Shown here one piece after another: positions 50 through 51,150 of a DNA stretch of 52,522 nt (positions within the stretch are counted from its first letter, which is position 1; each line of letters starts with the position of its first letter). The notes under the pieces were generated by a model that ran no database searches, was not told where the DNA came from, and saw nothing but the letters and a program-made list of their open reading frames with translations. The DNA is taken from NCBI GenBank assembly GCA_001805615.1, contig MHGP01000035.1, positions 10,222 to 62,743 of the forward strand. The letters are read 5' to 3'. The position numbers were made by a program, and so were the translations under genes. The stretch comes from Omnitrophica WOR_2 bacterium RIFCSPHIGHO2_02_FULL_48_11. Its GTDB lineage: Bacteria > Omnitrophota > Gorgyraeia > Zapsychrales > GWA2-47-8.

Positions 50-2161
50 TTAAGTAGACTGAGCGGGTTGATTAAAGAAACCTTCTACGGCAACGAGATC
101 TCTCTGCAGACTGTCCAGCTTTTGAACACCATCTTGCCTGATAAATTTGCGATAAAACAGCTTTAAATTCGAACGTTGGATAAGCCTCCCTATCCCGATC
201 GGTGTTTGAGCATACAATTTTACCTGATTGGCGATGTGTTTCTTCTGCTCTTCATCATGAAAGAAACAAAATTCAACCGGGCTGGACAACCTCGGGAAAT
301 CATTTGGATTGATCCGAAAGTTAGCCTGGCTTACCGCAAGGAAATCATAATAAAAACTTTTTGTAAAGACAGAGGCTGTGTCCGTTATAGAATTTCTTTT
401 CCTTAAGACGATAAATTGATTCAATTCCTCCAGGTACCCTTCAACCTCAGCAGTCAAGATCCCCTTGGTTTTGAGCGTCTCGGCGATCGATGTAAATAAT
501 AAGCGACAAATATCCTCAAATTCCGCAAACAGTAAAGCCCGATGCAGCAGCAATTCATTGGTCCCGAGTTCACCGCCGATATATTTTTCTAGCACTTCCG
601 GGGTCAGGACATAATTTTTTGCTTCATCGAAACTCTCATATAGATCTTTTGAGGTATGGACGATGAATTCGGCAATGATTTCATTGATACGGGCCGAATA
701 TAGTTCCGGATGCTGTTTGACATGGAGCAGACATTCAAAGGGCGACCCCCCCAACGTGCGCACCAAGGCAAAGGCCTCCTCAAAAATAGCATTGTTATGG
801 AATGTCTCAACCAATAAGTTCATGATGCGGCAGTCGATATAATCTTCCAACGACATGCTTTTGTTTCCAACGATAATTTCTTCGATCTCGGCCACGGGGT
901 GCTTTTCGCCAAAAAATTCATAAATACCAATGCAACCGGGGATTATCCGGTATTTGGTGATGAGCCCATAATTCTTTCTGGTCTCTCCGGTGGCCATATC
1001 AGTTCCCCGCAGAAGCATGGCTTGAAACATTCTCATGCTATTGACATTATTTTCGATACCAAAACGCAGCGATTGAAAATGTTTCTCCTTCGTGTCTCCC
1101 GGCATTCCCAAAATAATTTCAGAATGGGTTTTGCTATTTTTTAAATTGTTGCCGAAATCGATCAGCTCCTGATAGGCCGCGGAAGAAATATTGCTTCGCT
1201 TGATAGCTTTGAGGACTTCCGGATCCGTGGATTGGATCGACGCCCCCAGGGTCCACGACCCCCCGAGGATCTTGGCCGCTTCAATCGTGCGATGCGGCTG
1301 ATTCTTGCCGGCCGAGGCGGACAAAAGAATGGGATAGTGATATTTTTTTTGGATCTCGGCCACCGCCCGGGCCGTATCCAAGTCTTCCTTGTACATGGCA
1401 AAATTAAGATCGGTGATGATTAATTCATCCATGTTCTTGACGCGCGAGGCAATGTATTCCAACTCGGTATTAATACGTTCCTGCTCAAATCGATGCACCT
1501 TGTTTTTTACGACCATCCCATCGGCACAAAATGTGCAGGAAAACGGACACCCGCGCGTTGTTTCAATCATAGGGACAAGGGGATATTGAAAAAATTTGTC
1601 CAGTATTCCCGTTAAATAAGGGGACGGAATGACATTCACATCTGTTATGCGCTGAATAGGCCCTGAAATAACTTTCCCGTCGAAAACATAGGTCGTGTTA
1701 TTGGCTGATCGGCCCTCTTCCTTAAATCGCTGAACGTCAAAATTTATCTCCTTTAATTGTGCCGTGAGATTCACAAATCCCATCTCTCCTTCGAGTTCAA
1801 TATAAAAATCGATAGCAGGATGTGTACTTAAGAATTCATATTTTTCATCGTTAACAATGGGAAAATTGGGACCGCCGAAAACAGTTACTGTTTTCGGACT
1901 GCGCTCTTTGACGAGGGTGGCCATTTTATAGGCTAATTCAAAATTCCAGCTATAATTTGAAAGACAAAGCATGGCGGGAGATTTTTCGCTCAAGGCTTTG
2001 GCTAAATCGGCGGGAAACTTGAATAATTGAAAATCAAATTCATCGCCAAAATTATGTTTGGCATAACTCAGGACAAAGCTGATGCCCAATGGAAAAGTGG
2101 CGGCACTTATTCCTTGTGCGGTGTGAGTTAAATCTGCAAAATAAATTTTTTCTTTGCTCAT
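50..2161 (-). CDS. B12-binding-domain radical SAM protein (class B radical SAM, putative methyltransferase), 703 aa
   Basis: Long ORF. The N-terminal segment looks like a B12-binding domain (..LCLSNYSWNF..VTVFGGPNFP..). It is followed by the radical SAM CX3CX2C motif in TTRGCPFSCTFCADG and a long C-terminal extension of unknown function. Confidence 0.8.
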   Translation of the reverse strand: MSKEKIYFADLTHTAQGISAATFPLGISFVLSYAKHNFGDEFDFQLFKFPADLAKALSEKSPAMLCLSNYSWNFELAYKMATLVKERSPKTVTVFGGPNFPIVNDEKYEFLSTHPAIDFYIELEGEMGFVNLTAQLKEINFDVQRFKEEGRSANNTTYVFDGKVISGPIQRITDVNVIPSPYLTGILDKFFQYPLVPMIETTRGCPFSCTFCADGMVVKNKVHRFEQERINTELEYIASRVKNMDELIITDLNFAMYKEDLDTARAVAEIQKKYHYPILLSASAGKNQPHRTIEAAKILGGSWTLGASIQSTDPEVLKAIKRSNISSAAYQELIDFGNNLKNSKTHSEIILGMPGDTKEKHFQSLRFGIENNVNSMRMFQAMLLRGTDMATGETRKNYGLITKYRIIPGCIGIYEFFGEKHPVAEIEEIIVGNKSMSLEDYIDCRIMNLLVETFHNNAIFEEAFALVRTLGGSPFECLLHVKQHPELYSARINEIIAEFIVHTSKDLYESFDEAKNYVLTPEVLEKYIGGELGTNELLLHRALLFAEFEDICRLLFTSIAETLKTKGILTAEVEGYLEELNQFIVLRKRNSITDTASVFTKSFYYDFLAVSQANFRINPNDFPRLSSPVEFCFFHDEEQKKHIANQVKLYAQTPIGIGRLIQRSNLKLFYRKFIRQDGVQKLDSLQRDLVAVEGFFNQPAQST

Positions 2162-2194
2162 AAGAATTTAATTAATTTTGATGAATTAAAACTC

Positions 2195-2222
2195 ATAGTA
2201 ACATGCGGGCACATATAATCAA
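2195..2222 (-). promoter_or_regulatory. Weak candidate sigma70-type promoter TTGATT-N16-TACTAT upstream of the B12 radical SAM gene
   Basis: The minus strand of the 69-bp gap 2162..2230 reads TTGATT (2222..2217), a 16-nt spacer, then TACTAT (2200..2195). Both hexamers are imperfect and there is no operator-like repeat. Confidence 0.3.
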
Positions 2223-2230
2223 TTTTTATA

Positions 2231-3478
2231 TTATTGAAGCAGCTCCCGGTTCTTCCTTAAAAAATCTGTGCCGATTCTCGATCGAAAACTAAGACTTCTG
2301 TGCCCAGCTGGAAAAATGCTTCGGTAACGATTTTGCAATTCAATTTCTTCCGCTGTTATTACCCAAGTCTTATCTAACCGGGCGTTCATCTCCTTCGCCA
2401 GTTCCACTATTTCTTCTGGTGAATTCTCCACAACTTCAAGCCCTGCCTTAAGATAAAGATCATTCTGGTACCATGCATCGGCGCCATATTGAACAATTTC
2501 TTTATACGTTAAGAATCGTTTTCGATTCTTATCCCACAGCTTTTTGTGGATAACCACATCATCCTCTCGCCATCCAACCAGCCCAGCAGGAGGTGCGCTA
2601 TTACTGTAGGCAACGGGGATATTAAACATCCAGGCAATACTATGTAAACCGCCTTCCGTGGCAATAAAAAATTTGCATTTTGAAATACAATAAATATCCC
2701 CTAATTCGCTGCGAAATTTGTTGGCATAATCAATGACTTTATCACTTTTACCGACAAATGGTTTTTCTACAACATGTCCCATTCTAAGAACATACAGTCC
2801 GTGCGAAGCCAAATGTTCGGCTGCGGGCAAAAAGTTTTCCACATTGCAATTACGGTAATCATGATAGGCCCATTCTTGCGGCGAACGATAATTATGGACC
2901 GTATTCAAATAAGCCTTATCGCGAACGTGAAGGCAAATAAAGGGCTCGTTATTTTTTATTCCCATTTCTTCCAATAACTTCTTTCCTTTTGATTCTTCAT
3001 CTCCTATAAAAGCAAGCTGCGGTGGGATGGTATCCAACACCTCCTGATAACATTGCACGTACGGCAATTCCAGCCATAGAGGTGATTTCTTCGTTATGGA
3101 TTTAATGTGCGTGCTCATCCAACATATCAAGTCATTATCGATCAAGCACAATCGCCTCTGAAACATCCGATGCAACTGCTGATTGGCTGTCTTCTCGCTG
3201 ACTATAATTAAAAATTCCCCAGGGTTATATTCTCCCGCCTTTTTCTTGCGCAAATACAGCTCAGCATGAATATAATGACCGATCCGTTCAAAACCGCCTA
3301 TGGCAATTCGGAAATGAAACACCGGCTGCAATATCCTCAAAATAAAAAATAAAATAAAACCTGGCAACAGAAGAATTGTTTTTAAAATCTTAGTCGAAAA
3401 TTTTTCAAATAACTTTTTTGATGCCATGGGTTGGAGTATTTGCATGATATTTATCTGAATTCTATAGGTATTATTCAT
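2231..3478 (-). CDS. Hypothetical membrane-anchored protein, possible glycosyltransferase, 415 aa
   Basis: Long ORF in the operon with an N-terminal hydrophobic helix (ILKTILLLPGFILFFILRIL) followed by a soluble domain. I can name no catalytic motif with certainty. It loosely recalls the TIGR04372 putative-GT family, but that is from memory and unverified. Confidence 0.35.
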   Translation of the reverse strand: MNNTYRIQINIMQILQPMASKKLFEKFSTKILKTILLLPGFILFFILRILQPVFHFRIAIGGFERIGHYIHAELYLRKKKAGEYNPGEFLIIVSEKTANQQLHRMFQRRLCLIDNDLICWMSTHIKSITKKSPLWLELPYVQCYQEVLDTIPPQLAFIGDEESKGKKLLEEMGIKNNEPFICLHVRDKAYLNTVHNYRSPQEWAYHDYRNCNVENFLPAAEHLASHGLYVLRMGHVVEKPFVGKSDKVIDYANKFRSELGDIYCISKCKFFIATEGGLHSIAWMFNIPVAYSNSAPPAGLVGWREDDVVIHKKLWDKNRKRFLTYKEIVQYGADAWYQNDLYLKAGLEVVENSPEEIVELAKEMNARLDKTWVITAEEIELQNRYRSIFPAGHRSLSFRSRIGTDFLRKNRELLQ

Positions 3479-3487
3479 GATGAACGC

Positions 3488-4255
3488 TTAACGGGTCACT
3501 TTAATATTGCTTAATTGAGCAAGTTTTCGAGCTAAAGACTCATGCCATTGCAAAGAAAGGCCACCATCAACAACGATATTTTGTCCGGTTATAAATGAAG
3601 ATTTTGAACTGCAAAGAAATGATACCAGCTGAGCTATATCCTGCGATGTTCCCATCCGCCCCAAAGGCACTATACTCTGATACATATCAACCAGTTCCTG
3701 ATTATCTTGATAAAATCCTTTTGATTCCTCTTTGATAATCGTCCCTGGCGATATCACATTGACCCTGATTCCTTTGGGCCCTAACAGGACCGCGTAATAA
3801 CGTCCCAATTGCACCAACCCAGCTTTACCGACGTGATAGCTTACGGGCTGTTCATCTGCAACATATTCCGACGCAATGGAACTGATAATAACAATGGCCC
3901 CGCCTTCACTTTTATTAAAATTTTCTTTCACACATTCAATAATATTTTTTGTCGCTGTTAAACTGACCTCGAGCTCTCCGCCCCATGGATCAGACTCACC
4001 GCGGAACCTCTGCGAAAAAATTAAATTATTTATTTTTCCGTTCTGGTGGATAATTTTCTGAAAAGTAGCAGCAATATTAGTTTGCTCAGCCAGATCCAGC
4101 ATCCAAAAATGTGCATTGAGTATTTTTTTATCTTCCGCCTTCGGTTCTCGACGGCCGACAATGGAAACAATATGCCCTTGGTTACTGAATTCTTTGACTA
4201 TCTCTCTTCCGATCCCGCGAGTACCGCCGACAATTACACTGTGCTGTTTAATCAT
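3488..4255 (-). CDS. Short-chain dehydrogenase/reductase (classical SDR)
   Basis: Gly-rich NAD(P) motif VIVGGTRGIGREI, catalytic YxxxK (YHVGK), typical 255-aa length. The start overlaps the upstream stop as ATGA (4252..4255). Confidence 0.85.
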   Translation of the reverse strand: MIKQHSVIVGGTRGIGREIVKEFSNQGHIVSIVGRREPKAEDKKILNAHFWMLDLAEQTNIAATFQKIIHQNGKINNLIFSQRFRGESDPWGGELEVSLTATKNIIECVKENFNKSEGGAIVIISSIASEYVADEQPVSYHVGKAGLVQLGRYYAVLLGPKGIRVNVISPGTIIKEESKGFYQDNQELVDMYQSIVPLGRMGTSQDIAQLVSFLCSSKSSFITGQNIVVDGGLSLQWHESLARKLAQLSNIKVTR

Positions 4256-5265
4256 GAGACCTCTTTGTTATCAAGCTCATTTTCTTTCACTTGCGAGCCT
4301 TTTCCAAATTTCCACGTTGTTAACCGGTCTATCCGATTATAATATGTAAGCAAAGGAGAGCGCCTTATGAGAACATCTCCCTTGATTTCACTTTCTGCAA
4401 AATCATTACGCATCCAATCATTGCAATTCTTACAAAAAGGAACCTTGTCAAATTGACCAGTTTCATGATAATAACGAGCCTTTTCCATTTCTTCTCCATG
4501 CCAAACATCTTTAATGCTTGTCTTAAAAACATTTCCGACCTTTGTCATGCCATGCCCATCCCAACAACAAAGAGGAGTATTACCGTTGTTATGAATCAAC
4601 ATAGTCGTGTACAAAATAGAACAAGGCTTTCGTTTTTTTTGTAGTCGCTCTTTTATCATTTCTTTAGAAATATACGCTTCCGCCACGCGCACAGCATCGA
4701 CATGCTGAATCCAATAATTAACAAAATGATCCATTTCGTGCCTATTGATTTCCTCAACGACAAAGGAAACTCCAATACGCGTGTCTCTAGTTTCTCCACG
4801 GGCTTTTAACAAATGAAACACAGCTTCGTGAACCTTTTCCAGCTTAGGGGTTGAGCGGACATGGTTTAATGTTTCCTTGGTGGTGGCATCTATACTCACA
4901 AAAATACAATCAATCTTTAAATCAATGATGCGTTTGGCATATTCTTCCGTCATCAAAAGCCCGTTGGTATTAAGATTCACCGCTAATCCCCTATCCTTCA
5001 TGGCTTTCAAATAATCCCAACAATCTTTCTGCAATAATGGTTCTGAATAGCCGTTTCCAGCGACGACAACATCTTTGCCTTTAAGCTCATCAAAAAGTTT
5101 GCAAGCTTCCTGAAGATTCATATTCCCGCGGATGAGAGTTTGAGCTTCTTTACTGTCCCCATGGACAGGACATTTAGGACAGCGCAAATTACAAAAACCT
5201 TCAGAAAAGCCAAAGCTTAAACTTTGGGGATATTCTGGAACTGGAATTCGTTGCAATGTTTTCAT
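4252..5265 (-). CDS. Radical SAM enzyme with C-terminal SPASM/twitch-like Cys-rich domain
   Basis: CX3CX2C motif in FCNLRCPKCPVHG. C-terminal auxiliary-cluster-like cysteines (CS..PLCCWDG...FCKNCNDW). Confidence 0.8.
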   Translation of the reverse strand: MKTLQRIPVPEYPQSLSFGFSEGFCNLRCPKCPVHGDSKEAQTLIRGNMNLQEACKLFDELKGKDVVVAGNGYSEPLLQKDCWDYLKAMKDRGLAVNLNTNGLLMTEEYAKRIIDLKIDCIFVSIDATTKETLNHVRSTPKLEKVHEAVFHLLKARGETRDTRIGVSFVVEEINRHEMDHFVNYWIQHVDAVRVAEAYISKEMIKERLQKKRKPCSILYTTMLIHNNGNTPLCCWDGHGMTKVGNVFKTSIKDVWHGEEMEKARYYHETGQFDKVPFCKNCNDWMRNDFAESEIKGDVLIRRSPLLTYYNRIDRLTTWKFGKGSQVKENELDNKEVS

Positions 5266-5277
5266 CTGTATAAAATT

Positions 5278-7446
5278 CTATTTAACTGCGTCCTGATTAA
5301 GCTGAGCACCGGATACTATTTCCAACTTAGGTAAAAATAATATAAACTGCCCGCCTTCATTCAAAAATTTTTTATGCCGCTTGATGATCGGTTCATTGTA
5401 GCGCCATGCCAGGATCAATACATAATCCGGATTGCGCTTATAAATTTCATCACTTGAAAAAACCGGCAGGTGATGGCCGGGCGTATACAAGTTATACCGT
5501 GCCGGATTATCATCGACAATGTAGTCCAATTTATCCGCCAGATCAAATAGATATAATAATGTCGTTACCCCGACGGATGCGCCGTATCCGGCAACTTTTT
5601 TCCCCTGAGATTTCATATCGGTGAGCCATGCCGATAACTGAGCTTTCCACTCCTCGACCTCCTGAGAAATTTCTCGATAAATAGCCGGGTCACCCACACC
5701 TATTTTATTTTCCTGCTGGATCATTTGCTGGACCATCGGAGAAACATTTCTTTTCCCTCCCTTTAATTGAACAATGACGCGGAAGGACCCTCCCTTGGTC
5801 GGAATATGTTCGGCATAAATCAATTCCATTCCTTGTTCGCGGAAAAATTTCTCCATGCAGGAAACTGTAAAATAAGATAAGTGCTCGTGGTAAATTGTAT
5901 CAATGAGTTTTCCTTGGACAAAATCAACCATGTAGCCTGTTTCAAAAACAAAACAGCCATCTGCCGAAAGCAAAGTACGAATTCCCCGGATGAAAGAAGG
6001 CAAATCATCAATGTTCGCAATGACATTATTAGCTGTAATAATTGAAGCGGGCCCGTGCTGCTCATAAATTTGGCGCGCCAATTCTTCACGAAAATAATCA
6101 TTTAAAGTTTCAATGCCGGCGGCATTGGCTGATTTTGAGGCCTCAGGAGCCGGATCGATTCCAAGAACCTTCATTCCCTGACGTTTAAAAGCTTTGAGTA
6201 ATGTTCCGTCATTACTACCGATATCTATAACCAAAGACGCCTGGGCGGGTTTTAGATAATCCAAAACTTCTTTGGCATAGCGATTAAAATGTTCGACCAG
6301 ACCTAAGGAAATGGAAGTCTGATAAATATAATTACCGTAAAGTATTTTAGGATTCACCACATCCAATAACTGGGCGCAACCGCAAGTCTTGCACAGAAAT
6401 AATTCCAAAGGAAATTCTTCCTGCTTCTGATGAATTTTCTCAACCGGCACATAAGAATCACCAACGGGCGTTGGAATAAATTTCAAGATAAGCTCTAAAT
6501 CCTTGAAATGACATAACCGGCAGTCAGAACGCCGCACACATGAAGATTGATGATTTTTTTGTTCCTTGCTTTTTAATTTTTGAATAAAAATTTCTATCAC
6601 CTCATCAACGTTTGTAAAAACCATCCCTGTTGCTTTTATTAATTTCTCCACATTTAAATACGAGCGTGGCGGTCTTTTCTCCAGTAAATTTAATTTATTT
6701 TGCGGCAAGGCCACAATCTCAGCTTTCTTGCCTAATTTCTTAAAAAACGCTTCGGCTAAGGCGACTCGATTCATAGAATTCGGATTAGCCAAATGATATA
6801 TTCCCGAACAATTTTTCTCACATAAACCAACTAAGGCCTTGCCCACATCCTCCACCTGGGTCGGTCCGAATTCCTGATCTTCAATGCAATAGATCGGCTG
6901 GGATTTTTCCGCGAGACGATTCCATTCGGTAAACATATGGTTTGAAAAAGGATCATCGGCAATCACTTTATCTAATCTCACAATTAAAGCCCCGGGATAA
7001 TTCTTGGTAATAAATTTTTCAACATCCCATTTTTGATGCGCATACACCGATACGGGCGATGGCTGAGCATCTTCCTTATAATTGCCCTTTTGCCCGTCGA
7101 ATACAGCCGATGTGGAAATAAAAATAGGTTTTACTCCCAAACGAACCAAATCCTCGATCAATTGGATCATATTGGTCACATTAATTTTGCAACTCACATC
7201 CTTTTCGCGAAAACATCGGTCGGTATTGGTAAAACCGGCAAATATGATGGCAAATTTCGGTTCAGCACCTTGAAAAAATGATGGTCCGATAACACTTTCT
7301 ATTCGATCTTTGGTTAAATCGAATTGAATAAACTCGGGATAAGAGGCAGAATATTGCGTCCCGACGGTTTTATAGCCCCGCGATTTCAGGTAAGCATAAG
7401 TAGCTCGGCCGACAAACCCGGAGGCGCCTAAGACTAAAAATTTCAT
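5278..7446 (-). CDS. Fusion protein: N-terminal RmlD-like NAD(P)-dependent sugar reductase/epimerase plus C-terminal NDP-hexose C-methyltransferase-like domain, 722 aa
   Basis: N-terminal part: GASGFVG Rossmann motif and YAHQK (YxxxK). C-terminal part: zinc-ribbon cysteines CRLC...CKTCGC, SAM motif VIDIGSNDGTLL, and a C-methyltransferase C-terminal-type segment KVAGYGASVG..YIVDDNP. Confidence 0.8.
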   Translation of the reverse strand: MKFLVLGASGFVGRATYAYLKSRGYKTVGTQYSASYPEFIQFDLTKDRIESVIGPSFFQGAEPKFAIIFAGFTNTDRCFREKDVSCKINVTNMIQLIEDLVRLGVKPIFISTSAVFDGQKGNYKEDAQPSPVSVYAHQKWDVEKFITKNYPGALIVRLDKVIADDPFSNHMFTEWNRLAEKSQPIYCIEDQEFGPTQVEDVGKALVGLCEKNCSGIYHLANPNSMNRVALAEAFFKKLGKKAEIVALPQNKLNLLEKRPPRSYLNVEKLIKATGMVFTNVDEVIEIFIQKLKSKEQKNHQSSCVRRSDCRLCHFKDLELILKFIPTPVGDSYVPVEKIHQKQEEFPLELFLCKTCGCAQLLDVVNPKILYGNYIYQTSISLGLVEHFNRYAKEVLDYLKPAQASLVIDIGSNDGTLLKAFKRQGMKVLGIDPAPEASKSANAAGIETLNDYFREELARQIYEQHGPASIITANNVIANIDDLPSFIRGIRTLLSADGCFVFETGYMVDFVQGKLIDTIYHEHLSYFTVSCMEKFFREQGMELIYAEHIPTKGGSFRVIVQLKGGKRNVSPMVQQMIQQENKIGVGDPAIYREISQEVEEWKAQLSAWLTDMKSQGKKVAGYGASVGVTTLLYLFDLADKLDYIVDDNPARYNLYTPGHHLPVFSSDEIYKRNPDYVLILAWRYNEPIIKRHKKFLNEGGQFILFLPKLEIVSGAQLNQDAVK

Positions 7447-7967
7447 TGGAAAATTTCCTTTGATTTTTTAAGTTGACCCATAAAAATTTTCACCTCTGCT
7501 GCGTCTTTTTCTTCCGGAGCCCAAGGGGCAAAAATTGTATCTGTCCGGACAAAGGGACCCTGCGTTGCCTCATGAAAAACAATAAAGTCACTGTTGATGA
7601 TTAAGGTGTGATAAACAGGATCATTAATTCTAAAATAAAATTGTTTCCCTGACGCATAATCCCCCATCTCTATCACCTGACGCAATTGACCATTTTCATC
7701 AAACAGCAAGACATCAACGCTGCCTTCAATCAAATGGAAAGACTCACTCTTATGCAAATGTTTGTGCGGTCTCACGTAAGCTTCTTTCGCGTGAATAATC
7801 AGCATTTCATGAATAGCATCTTCCACACTCCTGTGCGAACAAAGCCGGATCCGTTGGCGCGGATTGGCCATGGCCATTTTTTTTAAAGCAGCGATGTCCT
7901 GACGGGAAACATTGGTAATTTCCTCGTTGGTATACAATACTTCTTCATTAAATTTTTTAGTTTGCAT
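7443..7967 (-). CDS. WbuC-family cupin-fold protein
   Basis: 174 aa. The segment RIRLCSHRSVEDAIHEMLIIHAKEAYVRPHKH..SESFHLIEGSVDVLLFDENG matches my recollection of WbuC-type cupins in O-antigen loci. ATGA overlap with the downstream gene. Confidence 0.65.
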   Translation of the reverse strand: MQTKKFNEEVLYTNEEITNVSRQDIAALKKMAMANPRQRIRLCSHRSVEDAIHEMLIIHAKEAYVRPHKHLHKSESFHLIEGSVDVLLFDENGQLRQVIEMGDYASGKQFYFRINDPVYHTLIINSDFIVFHEATQGPFVRTDTIFAPWAPEEKDAAEVKIFMGQLKKSKEIFQ

Positions 7968-10440: not shown

Positions 10441-10452
10441 GATGATTCCTTT

Positions 10453-11361: not shown

Positions 11362-11366
11362 ATTTT

Positions 11367-12491: not shown

Positions 12492-12497
12492 TGTAAG

Positions 12498-14187: not shown

Positions 14188-14190
14188 AAA

Positions 14191-19790: not shown

Positions 19791-19894
19791 CCCAATTTTC
19801 CTTAATACTCCCAATTGATCGTATAGATGAAATTGGGATAGCACTGATTACCTTTATTGTTGTTTTAGAAACATCAGGCATTCCGATTTCCCTT

Positions 19895-25520: not shown

Positions 25521-25589
25521 ATATTCTTCAGATTGTTTGCGCAGTAATTCGTTTAATATGAATAACTTAAATCTCTATATAAACTCCCA

Positions 25590-25613: not shown

Positions 25614-25641
25614 ATTATAGTCCTTAACTCCCCCCTGTCAA
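25614..25641 (-). promoter_or_regulatory. Consensus sigma70-type promoter P2: TTGACA-N16-TATAAT
   Basis: Minus strand reads TTGACA (25641..25636), a 16-nt spacer ggggggagttaaggac, then TATAAT (25619..25614). It sits in the 132-bp gap between the 25653 stop and the 25520 start. Confidence 0.6.
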
Positions 25642-25652
25642 GGCAAAAACCG

Positions 25653-38107: not shown

Positions 38108-38108
38108 A

Positions 38109-44097: not shown

Positions 44098-44738
44098 TTT
44101 TTTCGCTTAATCACTTTCGCCGGCACACCGGCAACCGTAACACGTTCCGGAACGGAAGCGATCACAACCGCGCCGGCTCCGACCATCGTGTTCTTTCCGA
44201 TAGAAACATTTTGGATCACGGCGGCGCCTGTCCCCACATAAGAACAACTGCCTACCCGCACCGTTCCGGCCAAATGCGCGCCCGGCCAAATATGGCAAAA
44301 AGCCTCAAGGTAACAGTCATGATCAACGCTGGCACCGGTATTCACCACCGCCCCGTCTTCCAAGATCGCGGAAGGATTGATCACCGCTCCGGCCATCACC
44401 ACCACTCCGCGACCTAGCCGCGCATGGCGCGACACAACCGCCCGCGGATGCACGGCGGAGATCACTTGAAAGCCGAGCGCCGTCGCTTTTTGAAAGATGG
44501 TTTTACGTATTTCATTATTACCGATACCTAACGCAATTTTTACGGCCCGCTTATTCTTGATCTTTTCCAAATACGCGGCATTTCCTAAAATGCGGCAGCC
44601 GTTGATGCTTTGGTTGACCTTCTTTTTATCATCATCGATAAAACCTAACACCGGAATTTTTGATTCCGCTAAAATGTCGAGGATGACCTTGCCGTGTCCT
44701 CCCGCGCCCCAGATAATAACTTTTGTTGGTTTAGTCAT
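44094..44738 (-). CDS. NeuD/PglD-family sugar N-acetyltransferase (left-handed beta-helix)
   Basis: N-terminal KVIIWGAGGHGKVILDIL..GFIDDD, followed by hexapeptide repeats (..GAVINPSAILEDGAVVNTGASV..VGTGAAVIQNVSIGKNTMVGAGAVV). Confidence 0.85.
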   Translation of the reverse strand: MTKPTKVIIWGAGGHGKVILDILAESKIPVLGFIDDDKKKVNQSINGCRILGNAAYLEKIKNKRAVKIALGIGNNEIRKTIFQKATALGFQVISAVHPRAVVSRHARLGRGVVVMAGAVINPSAILEDGAVVNTGASVDHDCYLEAFCHIWPGAHLAGTVRVGSCSYVGTGAAVIQNVSIGKNTMVGAGAVVIASVPERVTVAGVPAKVIKRKK

Positions 44739-44742
44739 ATTT

Positions 44743-45891
44743 TTAGTAGGTGATCTTTTTCTGTATTAATCGGTTATTTAAATTGACCTTCCCTAAAAAT
44801 TTTACGATCCGGCCGCTGGCCTTTCCGTCACCATAAGGATTGCGGCACTGCTTGACACGCCGGCGGAACTTTTGATCATGGATCACTTTTTGGATCACGC
44901 GCGCAATGATCCGCTTCTCATGCGGCACATCGATCACATTGACACTGCGCTCTCTGCCTTCTTGACGGCAGCCGATATTAATCACCGGCAAACGGAACGA
45001 CGCCGCTTCAATGATCCCGCTGCTGGAATTTCCTATCAGCACCGATGCTATTTTTAAAAGGCCCAAATAATCGGCATGCGGGATACTTTTATAATGTTTC
45101 AGGAACAGATATTTTTTAAATTTACCCAAAACCTTGATCATCGCCCGCCCGCCGGCATCCGCATTCGGATAAACCACCACAGTTTGCAACTTTAGATCAA
45201 CAATGGCCTGCAAGGTCGACTGGATCTGCTTTCCCGCTTCCTTGATTTGTGAATGCACCGGATGCTGCACCAAAAGACCCAACGGCTGGCGTGGATCAAG
45301 GCGATATTTTTTTAATAATGTTTGTTTAGGCATGACCTGGTCATTTAAGATCCGATCCAGCGCCGGAGCACCCGCGACCATGACACGCCACGGCTCTTCC
45401 CCCAATCTCAGGATCCGCTCTCTCGCTTTTTGGGTAGCTGGAAAATGAATATGCGCGAGTTTGGTGATCGCATGGCGGACAACCCCGTCCACATGACCCG
45501 AGACCTCGCCGCCGTGAATATGCACAACGGGAATGTTCATATAATTCGCCGCCACCGCGGCCGCCAGGACCTCGCCCCGGTCGCCCAAAGTCAAAATAAA
45601 ATCCGGTCTCAACCGTTGAAAGCATCGCACAAATTTGGAGGTGCCGCGCCCCACACCATCGGCCATCGCCCCACCTTTATCCTGCGCATGACTGATGTCG
45701 ATCTTTGCGTAAACCGAAAACCCGTCGCGTTCAATTTCTTTCACGGTATAACCAAACTCCGTCATCAAATGCATTCCCGTCGCCACCACATACAAATTGA
45801 AATGCTTCGAACTCCGGATCGCCTCCATCACCGGAGCCAAGATCCCGTATTCCGCCCGCGTTCCCGTGATCACACACACTTTACGTTTCAT
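44743..45891 (-). CDS. neuC: UDP-N-acetylglucosamine 2-epimerase (hydrolysing), NeuC/LegG-like
   Basis: KVCVITGTRAEYGILAPVMEAI and VVHIHGGEVSG. I place the start at MKRKVCV.., giving an ATGA overlap with the neuB-like stop (45888..45891). Confidence 0.85.
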   Translation of the reverse strand: MKRKVCVITGTRAEYGILAPVMEAIRSSKHFNLYVVATGMHLMTEFGYTVKEIERDGFSVYAKIDISHAQDKGGAMADGVGRGTSKFVRCFQRLRPDFILTLGDRGEVLAAAVAANYMNIPVVHIHGGEVSGHVDGVVRHAITKLAHIHFPATQKARERILRLGEEPWRVMVAGAPALDRILNDQVMPKQTLLKKYRLDPRQPLGLLVQHPVHSQIKEAGKQIQSTLQAIVDLKLQTVVVYPNADAGGRAMIKVLGKFKKYLFLKHYKSIPHADYLGLLKIASVLIGNSSSGIIEAASFRLPVINIGCRQEGRERSVNVIDVPHEKRIIARVIQKVIHDQKFRRRVKQCRNPYGDGKASGRIVKFLGKVNLNNRLIQKKITY

Positions 45892-46937
45892 TGCACGATA
45901 TCCCATGAAAAAATTTGATCTTTACGGATTATAGTTTTGGCCCTTTTCCCGGTCAGCCGCTGTAGCCATTTCGGCTCGATCCCGGTTCCCGGCCGCTTGA
46001 CCGTCAGCATATCCGACGTGATTGTGACCCCTTTTTCAATATCACACGCCGCCACAATACTCTTGCGCGCGACCTTCTGAATCGCGATCTCCGACGGATT
46101 AGGTTTCTTAATACCGTTGCCTCTGGCTTTCTCAACATTACGAATCGCCTCGACCATTTTCTGAAACTCCTGCGGCTCCAGCGAAGTTTTATGGTCCGGC
46201 CCCGGCAAATTTTTATCCAGTGTCAGATGTTTTTCAATGACGCACGCGCCCAGCGCAACCGCCGCAACGCTGATCTCAATTCCCAATGTATGGTCCGAAT
46301 ACCCCACCGCGACATCAAATTTATTTCTTAAAGTCAGCATCGCATTCAAATTCACTTCTTCATATTTGGTCGGATAATTCGACGTGCAATGCAGCAAAAT
46401 CAGCTCCCTGTTCCCCTCCTTATGAATCGTCTTCACCGCTTCAACAACCTCCTCCAGCGACGACATGCCCGTCGACAAGATGATCGGCTTTTTAAACTGT
46501 GCCACTTGCTGCAACAAAGGGACATTGGTCAATTCTCCAGAACCGATCTTATACGCCGGCAATCCCAGCAACGCGAGGAACTCCGCGCTGATCCGATCGA
46601 ACGGCGTTGACAAAAACATGATCCCCTTTTTCTGGGAATACTCAAATAATTCGGAAAATTGATCCTCGGAAAGTTCCAGTTTTTTAAGCATGGCGTATTG
46701 GGAAGGATGCGCATCGGTCTTTTTTTGATATTCCGCTTTCGGCGCGTTCGCCGTCACTAATTCCTCAGCGCGAAAGGTTTGAAATTTTATCGCGTCCGCA
46801 CCGATCCTTTTTGCACTATCCACTAACTTCTTAGCCATGGCGATCTGACCGTTGTGATTCACCCCTGCCTCAGCGATGATAAAGACCGGACATTGTTCCG
46901 CGATCACACGGTTCCCTATTTTAATTCCCTTAGCCAT
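45888..46937 (-). CDS. neuB: N-acylneuraminate/legionaminate synthase, NeuB/LegI-like
   Basis: CPVFIIAEAGVNHNGQIAMAKKLV, GADAIKFQTF, and a SAF-like C-terminus. 349 aa. Confidence 0.9.
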   Translation of the reverse strand: MAKGIKIGNRVIAEQCPVFIIAEAGVNHNGQIAMAKKLVDSAKRIGADAIKFQTFRAEELVTANAPKAEYQKKTDAHPSQYAMLKKLELSEDQFSELFEYSQKKGIMFLSTPFDRISAEFLALLGLPAYKIGSGELTNVPLLQQVAQFKKPIILSTGMSSLEEVVEAVKTIHKEGNRELILLHCTSNYPTKYEEVNLNAMLTLRNKFDVAVGYSDHTLGIEISVAAVALGACVIEKHLTLDKNLPGPDHKTSLEPQEFQKMVEAIRNVEKARGNGIKKPNPSEIAIQKVARKSIVAACDIEKGVTITSDMLTVKRPGTGIEPKWLQRLTGKRAKTIIRKDQIFSWDIVQ

Positions 46938-47532
46938 GGTGTTTTGACTTTCCCAAAAGATAGATCGTCTCGTTATTCTTTAAAACCTCTTTTTCAAGGC
47001 TGAAAAGCGTATTAAAAACCTCTCTCAGTTCTTCAAATGACTTCACAAAACCGATGGGATCCGGTGGTAAATACAGCGTGATATAAACATAGTTGGCTTT
47101 CGCCGCGGCTTTCTGCAAAACTTCTTCCCAATTTTGTAAATAAGACAGAACCTCTAGCATCACGATGGCGTCCCATCTTTGCGGAGCACTTAAAGCTTCT
47201 TCGGCGGTCGCGGTGGAGAAACGAATCCCCGGGTACCGTTGTTCAGCTTTAGCGATCGCTGTTTGCGAAATATCAACACCCATCACAGAATCGGCAATCG
47301 TTGCGAGTTGATTTGTAAAAGCCCCTTTGCCGCAACCGATGTCCAGAATGGAAGAGAACCTGTAATTTTTCAAGAGCTCCCAGGAACCTTGCTTGGTCGG
47401 ATGCCGCAGATCCTCCTGAAACCAGCTGTCAAAACCTTCTCGCTCCTCGTTGGCGTACATCTCTTCAAAGCGGCCCACGAATTTACGGTTTTCGGTATCA
47501 AAAACATATTTATGATACGGTTGCTGTGTCAT
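46930..47532 (-). CDS. Class I SAM-dependent methyltransferase
   Basis: Motif I ILDIGCGKGAFTNQL, 200 aa. Located between the neuA-like and neuB-like genes. Confidence 0.75.
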   Translation of the reverse strand: MTQQPYHKYVFDTENRKFVGRFEEMYANEEREGFDSWFQEDLRHPTKQGSWELLKNYRFSSILDIGCGKGAFTNQLATIADSVMGVDISQTAIAKAEQRYPGIRFSTATAEEALSAPQRWDAIVMLEVLSYLQNWEEVLQKAAAKANYVYITLYLPPDPIGFVKSFEELREVFNTLFSLEKEVLKNNETIYLLGKSKHHG

Positions 47533-48169
47533 GTTCTACACCCGCGTGTTGTTTCAACAAAACTTGCTCCGCCAGCCAGAAATCAAACTCCTCATCGATC
47601 TCGATATTTTCTTCGCGGCCGGTAAAAACGTTGCCTGCCTTTTTTCCGTAGAGCGTTCCTTTTTTGATCAACGACGATTTCACCACATACACATTGCCGT
47701 CGTCGTAAAAAAATCCCTTTAACTCCTGCCGGCGCTTGGTGTAACTGCCGTATTCCATAAATTTGCAGATAAACCCGGTCGCCAAATTATCACACTTCTT
47801 TTTTTCAAACTCTCTGATACATTCATCGATCAATCCGGCCCGGCGGATCGGTGAGGTCGGCTGCAAGATCACAACATTCTCCGCATCGATCTTAGTTAAT
47901 ACCTGCTGCAAGGCCGACAAGGTCGTCGCGGTATCCGTTGCCAATTTCTTCGGCCGGTCGATCACCTCGCACCCGAACGTTCGTGCCACTTGAGCGATCT
48001 CGGCATCTTCCGTCGAGACCACGCACCGGTCGAGCAATTTCGCTTGCCGCGCCGCTTCCATCGTCCAGGCGAGCAAAGGTTTGCCGGCGATCATTTTGAT
48101 ATTTTTCCGCGGGATCCCTTTGCTTCCTCCGCGCGCCGGGATCACGGCTAAGTACGGGATACGAGACAT
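47510..48169 (-). CDS. neuA: Acylneuraminate cytidylyltransferase, NeuA/LegF-like
   Basis: LAVIPARGGSKGIPRKNIKMIAGKPLL. I place the start at the internal Met (MSRIPYL..). The upstream part of the ORF overlaps the preceding gene in another frame. Confidence 0.85.
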   Translation of the reverse strand: MSRIPYLAVIPARGGSKGIPRKNIKMIAGKPLLAWTMEAARQAKLLDRCVVSTEDAEIAQVARTFGCEVIDRPKKLATDTATTLSALQQVLTKIDAENVVILQPTSPIRRAGLIDECIREFEKKKCDNLATGFICKFMEYGSYTKRRQELKGFFYDDGNVYVVKSSLIKKGTLYGKKAGNVFTGREENIEIDEEFDFWLAEQVLLKQHAGVEHDTATVS

Positions 48170-49344
48170 TCTTTTTCTACTTCCTGAGCGGTGTCGCGCA
48201 CCGCTGCAATAACCTGGTTGATACGTTCTTCCGGCATCAAAACCATGATTGGCAGCGCGATCGCCCGCCGCAGATAACCGGTTGACTGGCTCCAAACTTT
48301 CTCCAGATCTTTTCCTTTAAATTCCGAAAAGTTATAAAAAATCTGTGTCCATGTACCGGCAAAATGCCAATCGATCGCGTCGGGCAAATTTTTCGTCCCA
48401 AAGCCTTTGTCTTTCAACTTTTTTGCAAAAAGCGACGCCTTCTCTCTCGATGGCATGAAAAAGATCAGCGTGTCGCCCGCATCACCCTCGGGGTTGGGGA
48501 TCTCCCGGAACTCGATGCCCGGAATATTCTTGATCCCTTCCTTGATCTTGCGCTTATTGTCGCGCTGTTTTTGCAGGATATAATCCAATTTCTTTAACTG
48601 GGCTAAGCCGATCGCGCCGTGCAGTTCATTGGCTTTATAATTGAAGCCCCAAGTCGTGCGCGTGTCTTCGCCGCGGGGCACCTTGGGATTTTGTTCATGG
48701 CCGTGATCCGAATATTCCCGTGCCTTCAAATAAATTTTTTCATCATTGGTAACAACCAGCCCGCCTTCGCCGGTCGTGATGATCTTACCGATATCCAAAC
48801 TGTAGATCCCGACGGCGCCAAGCGTTCCCAGATATTTTCCTTTATACGTCGCGCCCATGGCCTGAGCACTGTCTTCCACGATCGGCAAACCATGCTTTTG
48901 CGCGATCGCCTGGATCTCCTCCATCTTGGCAGCGACTCCGGCCATGTATACCGGCACGATCGCTTTAGTTTTTTTCGTGATCTTTTTTTCCAGATCTTTG
49001 GGGTCCATATTCAACGATTTATCCACCTCCGTCACAACGGGAACAGCGCCTAATTCCAAGATCGCCTCGATGGTCGCGATAAACGTAAAACTCTGCGTGA
49101 TGACCTCGTCCCCGGCCTTGACCCCGACGGCAAGCAAGGCAAGCTTCAAAGCAGCGGTCCCATTGCAAACACACAAGACATGCTTCACACCGATCTTCTT
49201 AGCAACGGCATTTTCAAAATCATTCACCCGAAAAATGTTCTGCCGCTTGGCATCTAATCCGTAGCGGTATAAAACGCCTCCCTTATCAAAAAGGTCGGCC
49301 ACCGCCTGTTTTTCTTCTTCTCCGATCAACTCAAACCCTGGCAT
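48148..49344 (-). CDS. DegT/DnrJ/EryC1/StrS-family PLP-dependent aminotransferase (second copy)
   Basis: 398 aa with the PLP-lysine segment YSLDIGKIITTGEGG. Confidence 0.85.
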   Translation of the reverse strand: MPGFELIGEEEKQAVADLFDKGGVLYRYGLDAKRQNIFRVNDFENAVAKKIGVKHVLCVCNGTAALKLALLAVGVKAGDEVITQSFTFIATIEAILELGAVPVVTEVDKSLNMDPKDLEKKITKKTKAIVPVYMAGVAAKMEEIQAIAQKHGLPIVEDSAQAMGATYKGKYLGTLGAVGIYSLDIGKIITTGEGGLVVTNDEKIYLKAREYSDHGHEQNPKVPRGEDTRTTWGFNYKANELHGAIGLAQLKKLDYILQKQRDNKRKIKEGIKNIPGIEFREIPNPEGDAGDTLIFFMPSREKASLFAKKLKDKGFGTKNLPDAIDWHFAGTWTQIFYNFSEFKGKDLEKVWSQSTGYLRRAIALPIMVLMPEERINQVIAAVRDTAQEVEKECLVSRT

Positions 49345-50506
49345 AAGTTCCCCCCGGATGAAATATTTTTGTCATCATCTTTCTTACATCTTCTTTCGTA
49401 ATTTCCATAGGATTCTGGTCGATCGCCGCCTTTAAGACATCGTATTGCTCGATGAGGAATTCCGCATCCTTATCGGTCAATTTATAGGCAGCGATGGCCT
49501 TGGGCACATCGAGCTTGGTCATTAATTCCGCAATCCGTTTTACGAATTCGCTGTTTTTTTCTTTCACCGCAAGTTTTTTGTCAGCGCCTTCCATGAGATC
49601 ATAAAGGGCGGCATAATCCTGATACCCTTTTTCGACATTAAGGCGCGTGATCTCCGGCAGAAAGATCGCCCCGGCATAGCCGTGGGGAACTTTATAGACC
49701 GCACCCAGCGGATACGAAAACGCCCCCGACGGGCCGGAGCCTGCATTGATCAAGGCGGCGCCCGCCAAATACGCGCCCAGCGCCAAATGACCGCGGATCT
49801 CGATGTCTTGAGGGTGATCCAGGACTTTATTTAAATTATTATAAAGCAGGCGAAAGGCCTCTGTGGAATACATCCGGGAAACCGGGGTGTGATTTTTGTG
49901 CACATAACTTTCTAACGTATGGACCAAAGCATCTGCGCCCGAGGAGACGGTGACCGCTTTCGGACACCCGACGGTAAAAAGCGGATCAAGGATCGCCTGC
50001 ACGGGGTAATTGTATTCGGAGTTGATGCCCAATTTTTTCTTTTGCTTCGCATCCGTAAAGACCGCGTTGTAAGTGACTTCACTTCCGGTCCCCGCGGTCG
50101 TTGGGATCGCCACAACCGGCAAAGGACGGTGCTGCAATTTAGGAAAACCACGGTAGGAGATCGCTTCTCCCGGATTGGTCACCAGCGTCGCGACACCCTT
50201 CGTTAAATCCAACGTGCTGCCCCCGCCGATCCCCACGAGACATTCGAATCCCTGATTTAAGAACGGTTTTTTAAACGCCTCCAGGAAATCATAGTCGGGC
50301 TCGATGGCATCATTCTCAAACGTTTGATAGGCGACCTGCGCCGCCTTGATACTTTCCAAAGCCTTTCTCGTCTGCGGATGCGCTACGATACCGCGATCCA
50401 AAATAATCCCGACTTTTCTATAACCTAACTCCGTCAGGATCTTCCCCAGCTGTTCGCTCGTCGCTGCGCCGAACACCAAATGTGTTTTCAGTTTAAAATT
50501 AAACAT
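49331..50506 (-). CDS. Iron-containing (group III) alcohol dehydrogenase
   Basis: VGIGGGSTLDLTKGVA and downstream His-rich metal-site segments (..ALVHTLESYVH..). I place the start at MFNFKLK.. (internal Met of the ORF). Confidence 0.85.
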   Translation of the reverse strand: MFNFKLKTHLVFGAATSEQLGKILTELGYRKVGIILDRGIVAHPQTRKALESIKAAQVAYQTFENDAIEPDYDFLEAFKKPFLNQGFECLVGIGGGSTLDLTKGVATLVTNPGEAISYRGFPKLQHRPLPVVAIPTTAGTGSEVTYNAVFTDAKQKKKLGINSEYNYPVQAILDPLFTVGCPKAVTVSSGADALVHTLESYVHKNHTPVSRMYSTEAFRLLYNNLNKVLDHPQDIEIRGHLALGAYLAGAALINAGSGPSGAFSYPLGAVYKVPHGYAGAIFLPEITRLNVEKGYQDYAALYDLMEGADKKLAVKEKNSEFVKRIAELMTKLDVPKAIAAYKLTDKDAEFLIEQYDVLKAAIDQNPMEITKEDVRKMMTKIFHPGGTYARV

Positions 50507-51062
50507 TTTTCTCCATGAGGACATTGTCTTTGGAAAGTTCATGAATAAGGTCAACTGTTTTAACCGGATAGCCGGGATCGACAATAACATTTTCCCGGCA
50601 GATAAACACGACACCCCTAAAATCCGCGGGCGGAAGTTCTTCGGTGTAGGCCAATTTATAATCCGTTAATCCCAGATCTTTAAAGACCATTTCCGTTAGG
50701 ATCGCAAAGTCTGATTTCCCCAGAATGACAAAATTCCTCTCCCCCTCTTGATAAAGCGCGGCAATGAGTTGCTTGGCCTGGTCTTTGATAAGGCCGATGG
50801 CATTGAGTGTATTCAGGGTGTATTTGATGGATTTGCGCATTTTTTCGGCAAATCCTTTTGGGGTAAGAATATATTGAACTTTACGTTGATTGAGTTGCGT
50901 GATGCGGATATAACCCTTGGCCACGAGGCGACGGATGAGCATATTCGTTTGCCCCAGGGAAAGCTGCAAATGGCGGGAAAGGTCGCGCTGATTAGAGCCT
51001 AACTTCTGTCCGATAATATTAACGAGCTCAAACTCGCGTTCGTCCAAAACTTCTTTAGGCAT
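50499..51062 (-). CDS. MarR-like winged-helix transcriptional regulator (EPS-associated type) with extra ~85-aa C-terminal domain
   Basis: N-terminal NQRDLSRHLQLSLGQTNMLIRRLVAKGYIRITQLNQRKVQYILTPKGFAEK matches my recollection of the EPS-associated MarR family. It is the first gene after promoter P1. Confidence 0.65.
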   Translation of the reverse strand: MPKEVLDEREFELVNIIGQKLGSNQRDLSRHLQLSLGQTNMLIRRLVAKGYIRITQLNQRKVQYILTPKGFAEKMRKSIKYTLNTLNAIGLIKDQAKQLIAALYQEGERNFVILGKSDFAILTEMVFKDLGLTDYKLAYTEELPPADFRGVVFICRENVIVDPGYPVKTVDLIHELSKDNVLMEKNV

Positions 51063-51100
51063 ATATACTTATCACTTTGCTAGAGGTTTTATAGACAGCT

Positions 51101-51117
51101 TGTTCAATAATTGAACA
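51101..51117. promoter_or_regulatory. 17-bp perfect palindrome TGTTCA-N5-TGAACA (candidate operator, copy 1)
   Basis: Plus strand 51101..51117 reads TGTTCAATAATTGAACA. It lies 5 nt downstream of the -10 hexamer of P1 and 39 nt upstream of the regulator start codon. Confidence 0.5.
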
Positions 51118-51122
51118 TATAA

Positions 51123-51150
51123 ATTATAAAGAATTGCCTAAAAATGTCAA
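51123..51150 (-). promoter_or_regulatory. Consensus sigma70-type promoter P1: TTGACA-N16-TATAAT
   Basis: Minus strand reads TTGACA (51150..51145), a 16-nt spacer tttttaggcaattctt, then TATAAT (51128..51123). It sits in the 118-bp AT-rich gap upstream of the regulator gene. Confidence 0.6.

Follow-up and report, generated by a model that had tools for sequence, protein, structure and literature searches.

A regulator-headed Omnitrophota glycan locus of at least 70 kb with candidate nonulosonate transferases and an adjoining ABC exporter gene

Introduction

How might a bacterium that devotes dozens of genes to making unusual sugars join those sugars together and deliver them to its surface, if the gene cluster concerned seems to hold no export or polymerisation genes? 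This question is raised by a stretch of 52,522 nucleotides from an uncultured Omnitrophota (Omnitrophica WOR_2) bacterium of aquifer sediment (contig MHGP01000035.1, positions 10,222 to 62,743; hereafter the window), whose minus strand carries a glycan locus of 47 genes, here numbered g1 to g47 from position 50 upwards, with g47 the first in the direction of transcription. An earlier note, made from the sequence alone, had described a 51-kb, single-strand decoration locus with four sugar-nucleotide pathways. We find that the locus runs on past the window into an ATP-binding cassette (ABC) exporter gene and at least 18 further glycan genes, and that the window itself encodes five candidate cytoplasmic glycosyltransferases.

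Large surface-glycan loci are already well known, and the locus as such is no surprise. Three leads stand out: two structurally confident and widespread candidate nonulosonate transferases, g34 and g37 (the latter with about 3000 representative clusters); a regulator-operator pair conserved across phyla; and a triad of methyltransferase, methyltransferase-GT2 fusion and YfhO protein that might reveal how cells attach methylated sugars on the outer side of the membrane. In addition, we see here that a window boundary is able to create a false 'missing exporter'.

Results

The window ends inside an ABC exporter gene

The earlier conclusion that the locus lacks export genes did not survive extension of the sequence. 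An ABC half-transporter gene starts at position 39, 10 nt past the stop codon of the B12 radical SAM gene g1, and it was absent from the earlier list because the window edge cuts it. Its remainder, like the whole downstream extension, was read from several public contigs (Rifle aquifer assemblies) that encode the exact g1 protein and are 99.98-100% identical by blastn over window positions 1-12161. The complete product has 597 aa and combines ABC_membrane and ABC_tran domains. A half-transporter of the same class, 29% identical, lies inside the dual-nonulosonate cluster of another Omnitrophota bacterium, Gorgyraea atricola (contig L017), after the four-gene block described in the next section. 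Two genes past that transporter, L017 17798-19528 encodes a 576-aa HMGL-like protein with a weak MptE-like (Maf-type) domain, which has no counterpart in the window.

Together with the exporter gene, no fewer than 18 further glycan genes on the same strand fill at least 19 kb downstream. After the exporter come a C-methyltransferase, an SGNH-like protein with three membrane segments, a DegT aminotransferase, an FdtA-like isomerase, two SDRs, a methyltransferase, a GT2 protein, a third cytidylyltransferase, another methyltransferase, a TIGR04326 surface-carbohydrate protein (242 bits, cut-off 250), a radical SAM/SPASM protein, an aminotransferase, an SDR, an HAD phosphatase and a second B12 radical SAM protein; the last open reading frame (ORF) resembles the start of a 2-hydroxyacid dehydrogenase and is recognised by its N-terminal sequence only. 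The same-strand array in fact extends beyond both position 50 and position 51150. The 51-kb limits drawn earlier are therefore too narrow by at least 19 kb: the total comes to at least 70 kb and about 65 genes, with the window as the 5' two-thirds.

Scans of genomes and of metagenomes gave one locus apiece, and all retrieved assemblies stop within about 1.4 kb of each other, some 19 kb beyond the window and short of the 3' end of the locus. Within the roughly 80 kb covered by precomputed Pfam annotations and scans (the window, about 10 kb upstream and about 19 kb downstream), we saw no Wzx, Wzy, Wzz, Wzm/Wzt, priming transferase, ligase, flagellin or Maf gene; the earlier remark that Wzx, Wzy, Wzz, Wzm/Wzt and an initiating phosphoglycosyltransferase are missing thus holds for the window and the 19 kb that follow it. 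As the 3' end was not reached, we cannot say that the locus as a whole lacks genes for a polymerase or a ligase.

Two GT-B-fold proteins flank the PseB and PseC genes

Few transferases are known for pseudaminic and legionaminic acids (PMC5420450). We scanned all 47 proteins and the flanks with Pfam and NCBIfam profiles, comparing bit scores with curated cut-offs, and the gene content listed in the earlier note came through intact. That note had limited the transfer machinery to one GT2 protein, one methyltransferase-GT2 fusion, one YfhO-like GT-C protein and three orphans. The first three assignments stand; the orphans, g2, g34 and g37, are glycosyltransferase candidates, and the window is therefore not short of transfer machinery. 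Whereas g2 is recognised by a family model (Table 1), g34 and g37 had no match in the local Pfam library even in a relaxed scan, and sequence searches of g2, g21, g34 and g37, together with g34 and g37 family profiles, returned nothing significant among solved structures.

Structure models of g34 and g37, built with alignments of 57 and 63 relatives, respectively, reached predicted local distance difference test (pLDDT) scores of 91.5 and 91.9, and both showed a two-Rossmann-domain GT-B architecture. Foldseek matched the g34 model to trehalose-phosphate synthases, PimB' and the teichoic-acid polymerase TagF, and placed GtfB, UGTs, OleD and UDP-GlcNAc 2-epimerases at the top for g37. In many relatives of g34 the protein is joined to a CTP_transf_3 cytidylyltransferase domain, and some relatives carry the newer Pfam family PF27878 (PFTS_polysacc); the g37 family, with 2954 representative members at E<=1e-30, is without a Pfam model. 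Relatives of g34 and g37, as of g21, come mostly from Omnitrophota, Margulisiibacteriota and Elusimicrobiota.

Both proteins keep their place beside the PseB and PseC genes in four phyla: g37 lies directly upstream of PseB in every locus compared, and the order g37-PseB-PseC-g34 recurs in WOR-1, in Elusimicrobiota, in G. atricola and in other contigs. We had considered a kinship of g34 with the downstream TIGR04326 protein and of g37 with the TIGR04372 glycosyltransferase; profile comparison shows no relation in either case, and both ideas were rejected. The g34 and g37 profiles resemble each other weakly and in the C-terminal domain only (probability 46%), and because of this a firm assignment of the sialyltransferase motifs, D/E-D/E-G plus HP, was dropped for both. 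What remains are hints: g37 has an invariant HP (AAHPR), and each of the two families has an acidic pair. In sum, the window encodes five candidate cytoplasmic glycosyltransferases and one GT-C enzyme, with one more cytoplasmic candidate downstream; five to six such candidates would be enough for stepwise glycan assembly.

A methyltransferase, a methyltransferase-GT2 fusion and a YfhO protein form a module

The g23-g21 module contains the sole polytopic membrane ORF in all six frames of the window. This protein, g21, belongs to a small, divergent YfhO clade whose relatives carry PF09586; its YfhO match spans only the C-terminal 70 residues, and an invariant aspartate, Asp41, lies in the first loop after the first transmembrane segment. 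The GT2 domain of the neighbouring fusion protein g22 ranks nearest to polyprenyl-phosphate (Dol-P/Und-P) sugar synthases, with its best matches, all far below cut-off, in Dol-P hexose transferase, AglJ, PgfS, PpgS and ArnC, unlike the second GT2 protein of the window, g29, which ranks with elongating GT2s. The triad is free-standing in another groundwater contig (L012), and relatives again have GT2-YfhO pairs. Existing polymers are decorated by CsbB/YfhO systems (PMC8035078), and the methyltransferase-GT2/YfhO pair is of the type that decorates a pre-existing glycan outside the membrane, in keeping with the earlier suggestion that a pre-existing polymer is decorated.

Two perfect promoters are each followed by one palindrome, a likely operator

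Allowing up to one mismatch, the window contains only two matches to TTGACA-16 nt-TATAAT; both are perfect, both are on the minus strand, and they occupy the two largest gaps of the window. Each is followed 5-7 nt on by TGTTCA-N5-TGAACA, two exact copies against 0.08 expected even with one mismatch. The promoter-operator cassettes in these gaps imply at least two transcription units under one likely repressor-type site, at variance with the earlier single-unit view. The description of the locus as regulator-headed was well founded: g47 comes first, behind its own perfect promoter, and its nearest model is TIGR04176, for MarR family EPS-associated regulators, the cut-off of which it does not reach (49 of 88 bits). 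The palindrome is likely to be the binding site of this MarR/EPS-type regulator.

The cassette is modular. In a relative from Hainich groundwater (contig L014), where protein identity is only about 59% (59% for YfhO), the gap at the matching place holds a perfect promoter and an identical operator, and a second cassette precedes the acyl-ligase module (L014 1889-1936 and 9443-9493). In an Elusimicrobiota contig (L015), the gene at the head of a nonulosonate cluster encodes a regulator with 34% full-length identity to g47, and upstream of this g47-orthologous gene TTGACA-17 nt-TATACT overlaps an exact TGTTCAATAGTTGAACA (L015 2412-2456). Conservation of the pair from Omnitrophota to Elusimicrobiota suggests that nonulosonate glycan expression is switched on and off in uncultured bacteria. 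A pair of direct repeats, each about 45 nt long (caggtgtc...ggc(a/g)...aggcaatctaataggaacacataa), separates the regulator gene from NeuB in the same Elusimicrobiota contig (L015 3030-3140).

The window encodes two nonulosonate pathways and three further sugar-modifying modules

Two NeuB-family synthases and two cytidine monophosphate (CMP)-transferases are encoded in the window. The g46-g38 module consists, in order, of an iron-type alcohol dehydrogenase (Fe-ADH), a DegT aminotransferase, a CMP-transferase, a methyltransferase, NeuB, the hydrolysing 2-epimerase NeuC, a NeuD/PglD acetyltransferase, a CBS-SDR dehydratase-like protein and a second DegT aminotransferase. NeuB (486 bits, cut-off 400), NeuC (435, 236) and NeuD (234, 161) all exceed their cut-offs. 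No protein of the window reached the LegB or LegC equivalog level (99 of 475 and 208 of 420 bits), and since these matches are at superfamily level only, we leave the exact sugar at the legionaminic/neuraminic type. In the pseudaminic-acid module, PseB, PseC and PseI all exceed their equivalog cut-offs.

The g30-g24 module, which probably N-acylates an amino sugar, runs from an acyl-AMP ligase through the GT2 protein g29, a radical SAM protein, a GFO/IDH/MocA oxidoreductase, an acyl carrier protein and an AAC(3)-like N-acyltransferase to a DUF4910/DUF2172/HTH_47 protein; this seven-gene order is kept in the Hainich relative (L014 2004-9359).

The heptose-type module g20-g13 comprises an SDR, an HldE-like protein, a GmhA-like SIS isomerase, a second SDR, a weak HAD-like protein, an APH-family kinase and a split transketolase. 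Scores are low (GmhA 100 of 265; HldE domains 122 of 345 and 100 of 182), and the phosphatase candidate, g16, has weak HAD matches only, including in a relaxed Pfam scan. The module is syntenic with L014, which is without the two methyltransferase genes. The HldE-like protein (18258-19844) has its nucleotidyltransferase N-terminal and its PfkB kinase C-terminal, the reverse of Escherichia coli HldE, and the same holds in L014. The transketolase is encoded as separate N- and C-terminal subunit genes beside the heptose genes (13168-15018; 274 + 197 bits); its role could lie in the supply of sedoheptulose 7-phosphate or in the making of a two-carbon branch. Omnitrophica WOR_2 bacterium RIFCSPHIGHO2_01_FULL_48_9 has an annotated transketolase with at least 90% identity, and a look-up of the exact C-terminal subunit gave no record.

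The C-methyl/branched-sugar module opens with a methyltransferase, a zinc-type alcohol dehydrogenase, an SDR, a 2-oxoglutarate/iron (2OG-Fe) oxygenase (TIGR04324, 190 bits, cut-off 150), an LIC12192-like protein and a C-methyltransferase (g12-g7), and continues with a WbuC cupin, an RmlD-like::C-methyltransferase fusion, a radical SAM/SPASM protein, an SDR, the TIGR04372 glycosyltransferase and the B12 radical SAM protein (g6-g1). Its two C-methyltransferases, one of them that fused to the RmlD-like reductase, belong to Methyltransf_14. Profile scans of the window gave no hexose-1-phosphate nucleotidyltransferase for this pathway; of the four sugar-nucleotide pathways proposed earlier, the gene content is there, but the C-methyl pathway lacks that enzyme within the window. 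The earlier tallies of three radical SAM enzymes, one of them B12-binding, and of seven methyltransferase-type domains at the positions given then agree with the scans. G+C content is about 0.40 at positions 2001-10000, the region of C-methyl sugar tailoring genes, against 0.45-0.51 elsewhere, which suggests that the C-methyl module was acquired separately and is consistent with a mosaic origin of the locus.

The genes form a compact array beside a cobalamin operon

As the earlier note had it, 47 successive minus-strand ORFs run from 51062 down to 50 with no strand switch, and they leave little space: 99.2% of this span is coding. The gap sizes reported before are likewise accurate. That at 25521..25652 is real (132 bp); that after 19895 is 104 bp with the ATG start at 19790 and 50 bp with the GTG start at 19844; the next largest is 69 bp (2162..2230). 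For the 16 four-nucleotide overlaps counted earlier, our recount gives 14 junctions on longest-ORF coordinates, or 17 where an ATGA overlap is possible via an in-frame ATG. The longest ORFs of PseI (33121-34245), the second cytidylyltransferase (47510-48295) and Fe-ADH (49331-50614) extend 116-148 nt into the genes upstream of them; translation probably begins further in, and the public gene calls are shorter.

No convincing intrinsic terminator had been noticed before, and our scan of three window segments concurs: none of the terminator-like hairpins lies within an intergenic gap. Against shuffled sequence there was no excess in two segments (21 versus 22.4 and 13 versus 20.6) and a mild enrichment in the middle one (38 versus 26.8 ± 5.4).

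Directly upstream, on the same strand, lies a cobalamin salvage/transport operon (window 51181-52505 and contig L005 3150-10912) with CobT, CobS, CobC-like, BtuF/C/D-like, CobU and CobO genes; its part in the window comprises a periplasmic binding protein gene (51181-52092) and a partial BtuR/CobO gene (52092-52505). The adjoining glycan locus encodes at least two B12-dependent radical SAM enzymes, and the neighbourhood may reflect a link in cofactor supply. An Rfam scan of the window returned no RNA family, and specifically no cobalamin riboswitch beside the B12 genes.

Table 1. Coordinates of the principal features in the window, with the evidence for each (bit scores are given with curated cut-offs).
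Feature	Position	Strand	Evidence or remark
Promoter P1, TTGACA-16 nt-TATAAT	51123..51150	-	12/12 sigma-70 consensus; 118-bp gap upstream of g47
Operator O1, palindrome TGTTCAATAATTGAACA	51101..51117	.	5 nt past -10 box
g47 winged-helix regulator, 187 aa	50499..51062	-	HTH_24 N-terminal, 29.4 bits, cut-off 21.9
Legionaminic/neuraminic-type module g46-g38	41507..50614	-	Pfam/NCBIfam
g37 soluble GT-B-fold protein, candidate nonulosonate transferase	40289..41503	-	structure model, synteny
Pseudaminic-acid module g36-g31	33121..40255	-	NCBIfam
PseB	39272-40255	-	536 bits, cut-off 408
PseC	38109-39275	-	500 bits, cut-off 424
g34 GT-B-fold PFTS-family protein	36377-38107	-	structure model
g33 CMP-transferase	35623-36360	-	CTP_transf_3, Pfam 122 bits; best NCBIfam matches KdsB-like
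PseG-PseH fusion	34130-35626	-	right architecture, below cut-off: PseG 135 of 154, PseH 46 of 93
PseI	33121-34245	-	467 bits, cut-off 340
N-acylation/elongation module g30-g24 (function probable)	25653..33105	-	Pfam/NCBIfam
Promoter P2, TTGACA-16 nt-TATAAT	25614-25641	-	12/12 sigma-70 consensus; 132-bp gap
Operator O2, TGTTCAAAATATGAACA	25590-25606	-	in 132-bp gap
Decoration module g23-g21 (predicted)	20904..25520	-	Pfam/NCBIfam, transmembrane prediction
g23 methyltransferase	24771-25520	-	
g22 methyltransferase-GT2 fusion	23198-24781	-	
g21 YfhO-family GT-C	20904-23201	-	YfhO 37.4 bits, cut-off 28.5; 13 predicted transmembrane segments
Heptose-type module g20-g13	13168..20899	-	Pfam/NCBIfam, all below equivalog cut-offs
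C-methyl/branched-sugar module g12-g1	50..13163	-	Pfam/NCBIfam
g2 TIGR04372 glycosyltransferase	2231-3478	-	208 bits, cut-off 45; one N-terminal membrane anchor
g1 B12 radical SAM	50-2161	-	nearest KedN5-type C-methyltransferases, 165 bits, below cut-off
ABC half-transporter, first 13 codons MPFAQIMKKTIRD	1..39	-	remainder on identical contigs

Discussion

How, then, might the products of this locus reach the cell surface? The account that we consider best, with a confidence just above even, is stepwise assembly on a lipid carrier, flipping by the ABC transporter and decoration by the GT2/YfhO pair outside the membrane. Cytoplasmic enzymes would make CMP-pseudaminic acid, a CMP-legionaminic-type acid, a nucleoside diphosphate-heptose-type sugar and C-methylated or aminated deoxysugars, some of them N-acylated from the acyl carrier protein. 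Soluble or membrane-anchored transferases (two GT2 proteins, one TIGR04372 protein and two GT-B-fold proteins) would add these sugars singly to a polyprenyl-linked acceptor, primed by an enzyme encoded elsewhere. The MsbA/PglK/HepA-type half-transporter would then move the finished, non-polymerised glycan over the inner membrane. Outside it, the methyltransferase-GT2/YfhO pair would take one more sugar, in all probability methylated, from a donor of the polyprenyl-phosphate kind and add it; the final acceptor may be lipid A-core, a surface protein or a capsule anchor. Expression would proceed from at least two sigma-70 promoters, controlled by the MarR/EPS-type product of the first gene at TGTTCA-N5-TGAACA.

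Several observations weigh against this account. The available sequence contains no priming phosphoglycosyltransferase, ligase or oligosaccharyltransferase, so that the lipid-linked route is one that we infer, and the locus ends somewhere beyond the 19 kb read past the window. The exporter stays below every curated cut-off, also with its nearest models (HepA 393 of 725, MsbA 324 of 602, PglK 245 of 1000) and could export something other than this glycan. Foldseek TM-scores for the GT-B matches are modest (0.4-0.55), alongside the empty profile searches by sequence. As for the decoration step, g22 has no predicted membrane segment, unlike CsbB/GtrB; domain scans of the window gave no GtrA-type flippase, and there is no other multi-spanning ORF; and the YfhO gene of L014 has no adjacent methyltransferase-GT2 gene.

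Three parts of this scheme can be joined into a wider proposal, which we advance tentatively, as possible rather than probable: that the GT-B families of the g37-PseB-PseC-g34 quartet are the missing pseudaminic and legionaminic acid transferases of many uncultured phyla, that one winged-helix regulator family binds TGTTCA-N5-TGAACA over the transcription start across phyla, and that the methyltransferase-GT2 protein methylates its sugar at the polyprenyl-phosphate stage before transfer by YfhO.

The foremost alternative is a classical O-antigen locus of the Leptospira rfb type, of which the window would be the variable, sugar-tailoring 5' part, while the genes for Wzx/Wzy (or Wzm/Wzt), for a ligase and for priming would follow in the unread 3' part. 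In Leptospira, the rfb (O-antigen) locus starts with a MarR gene and can reach 121 kb (PMC10958091, PMC4758666); its sugar-modifying genes are grouped on the 5' side, and the processing genes of the Wzy pathway occupy a conserved 3' part (PMC10958091). Since that locus combines a leading MarR gene with 3' Wzy-pathway genes, the architecture seen here is no argument against an O-antigen-type locus. Families named after Leptospira carbohydrate clusters are present (TIGR04324 above its cut-off; TIGR04326 at 242 versus 250; TIGR04323 and LA_2486 weak), in a WOR-1 relative the same nonulosonate module is next to a Wzx gene, and a YfhO homologue adjoins a Wzy_C gene in contig L011. Yet some 70 kb of array hold no Wzx/Wzy, Wzm/Wzt, ligase or priming gene, and an MsbA/PglK-type exporter sits mid-array and recurs in another Omnitrophota cluster; on balance we think a classical O-antigen locus unlikely.

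The earlier note had preferred a decoration system, for a protein or for a polymer already in place, over an O-antigen or capsule locus. In its pure form this reading has no dedicated route of assembly or export, and the protein would be a flagellin, a pilin or an S-layer protein. Decoration as such is possible: the GT2/YfhO pair is a decoration device (PMC8035078), the two nonulosonate pathways recall Campylobacter flagellin glycosylation islands, and neither the window nor the extension contains a recognisable polymerase or priming transferase. Set against the exclusive form of the idea are the exporter gene that abuts the window and the six cytoplasmic glycosyltransferase candidates; moreover, the window encodes no Maf/MptE-like domain, and neither the 10 kb upstream nor the 19 kb downstream includes a gene for a flagellin, pilin or S-layer protein. 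We therefore regard pure decoration as quite unlikely. A cluster for a secreted, ABC-exported oligosaccharide or aminoglycoside-like natural product, as its B12 radical SAM C-methyltransferase-like proteins (KedN5, PhpK and AprD4 families as weak matches), AAC(3)-like acyltransferase, APH-family kinase, many methyltransferases, MarR-type regulator and ABC exporter might suggest, is very improbable, given the CMP-nonulosonate pathways, YfhO GT-C and heptose genes that are hallmarks of cell-surface glycans, the lack of any cyclitol, polyketide or peptide scaffold gene, and the recurrence of the modules in surface-glycan settings with Wzx, Wzy_C and PMT_2 genes.

Comparison with known systems

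In the flagellin glycosylation island of Campylobacter jejuni, a single large locus unites pseudaminic and legionaminic acid pathways, and methyl groups are among the modifications made. Here the window and flanks contain no Maf (MptE-like, PF01973) or flagellin genes, and an ABC exporter, a GT-C and GT2 proteins are present. Predicted pseudaminic and legionaminic acid transferases of Tannerella forsythia are two-domain, GT-B/TagB-like proteins encoded beside the sugar pathway (PMC5420450), a description to which g34, with its structural match to TagF, comes close; unlike them, g34 belongs to the PF27878 PFTS_polysacc family and g37 to a family without a Pfam model.

The assembly route that we favour resembles that of Helicobacter pylori Wzk and Campylobacter PglK, which works without Wzy: the glycan is built stepwise in the cytoplasm and flipped by an MsbA-like ABC half-transporter, with neither Wzy nor Wzz (PMC2841628). 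In contrast to that route, the transporter here is below the curated cut-offs, and the available sequence has no WecA/PglC primer or WaaL/PglB transferase. The decoration module shares with CsbB/GtcA/YfhO systems (PMC8035078) the neighbouring genes for a GT-A (GT2) and a YfhO-family GT-C protein, and differs from them in that the GT2 domain is fused to a methyltransferase and is without membrane segment or GtrA-type flippase, that a second methyltransferase is co-transcribed, and that the host belongs to the PVC group rather than to the Firmicutes.

The closest precedent is the MarR-headed rfb locus of Leptospira, which also contains an ABC-transporter transmembrane region (PMC10958091). The present locus differs from it in phylum, in having no rhamnose or Wzy-pathway genes in 70 kb and in a regulator that reaches 49 of the 88 bits of the MarR_EPS model. 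Both are very large glycan loci with a regulator gene first, of MarR type in Leptospira and a candidate of that type here, and with sugar-modifying and methyltransferase genes nearest to it, and the likeness extends from architecture to family models, TIGR04324 clearly, TIGR04326 nearly and TIGR04323 weakly. The locus described here is one more of that general kind, in a little-studied phylum.

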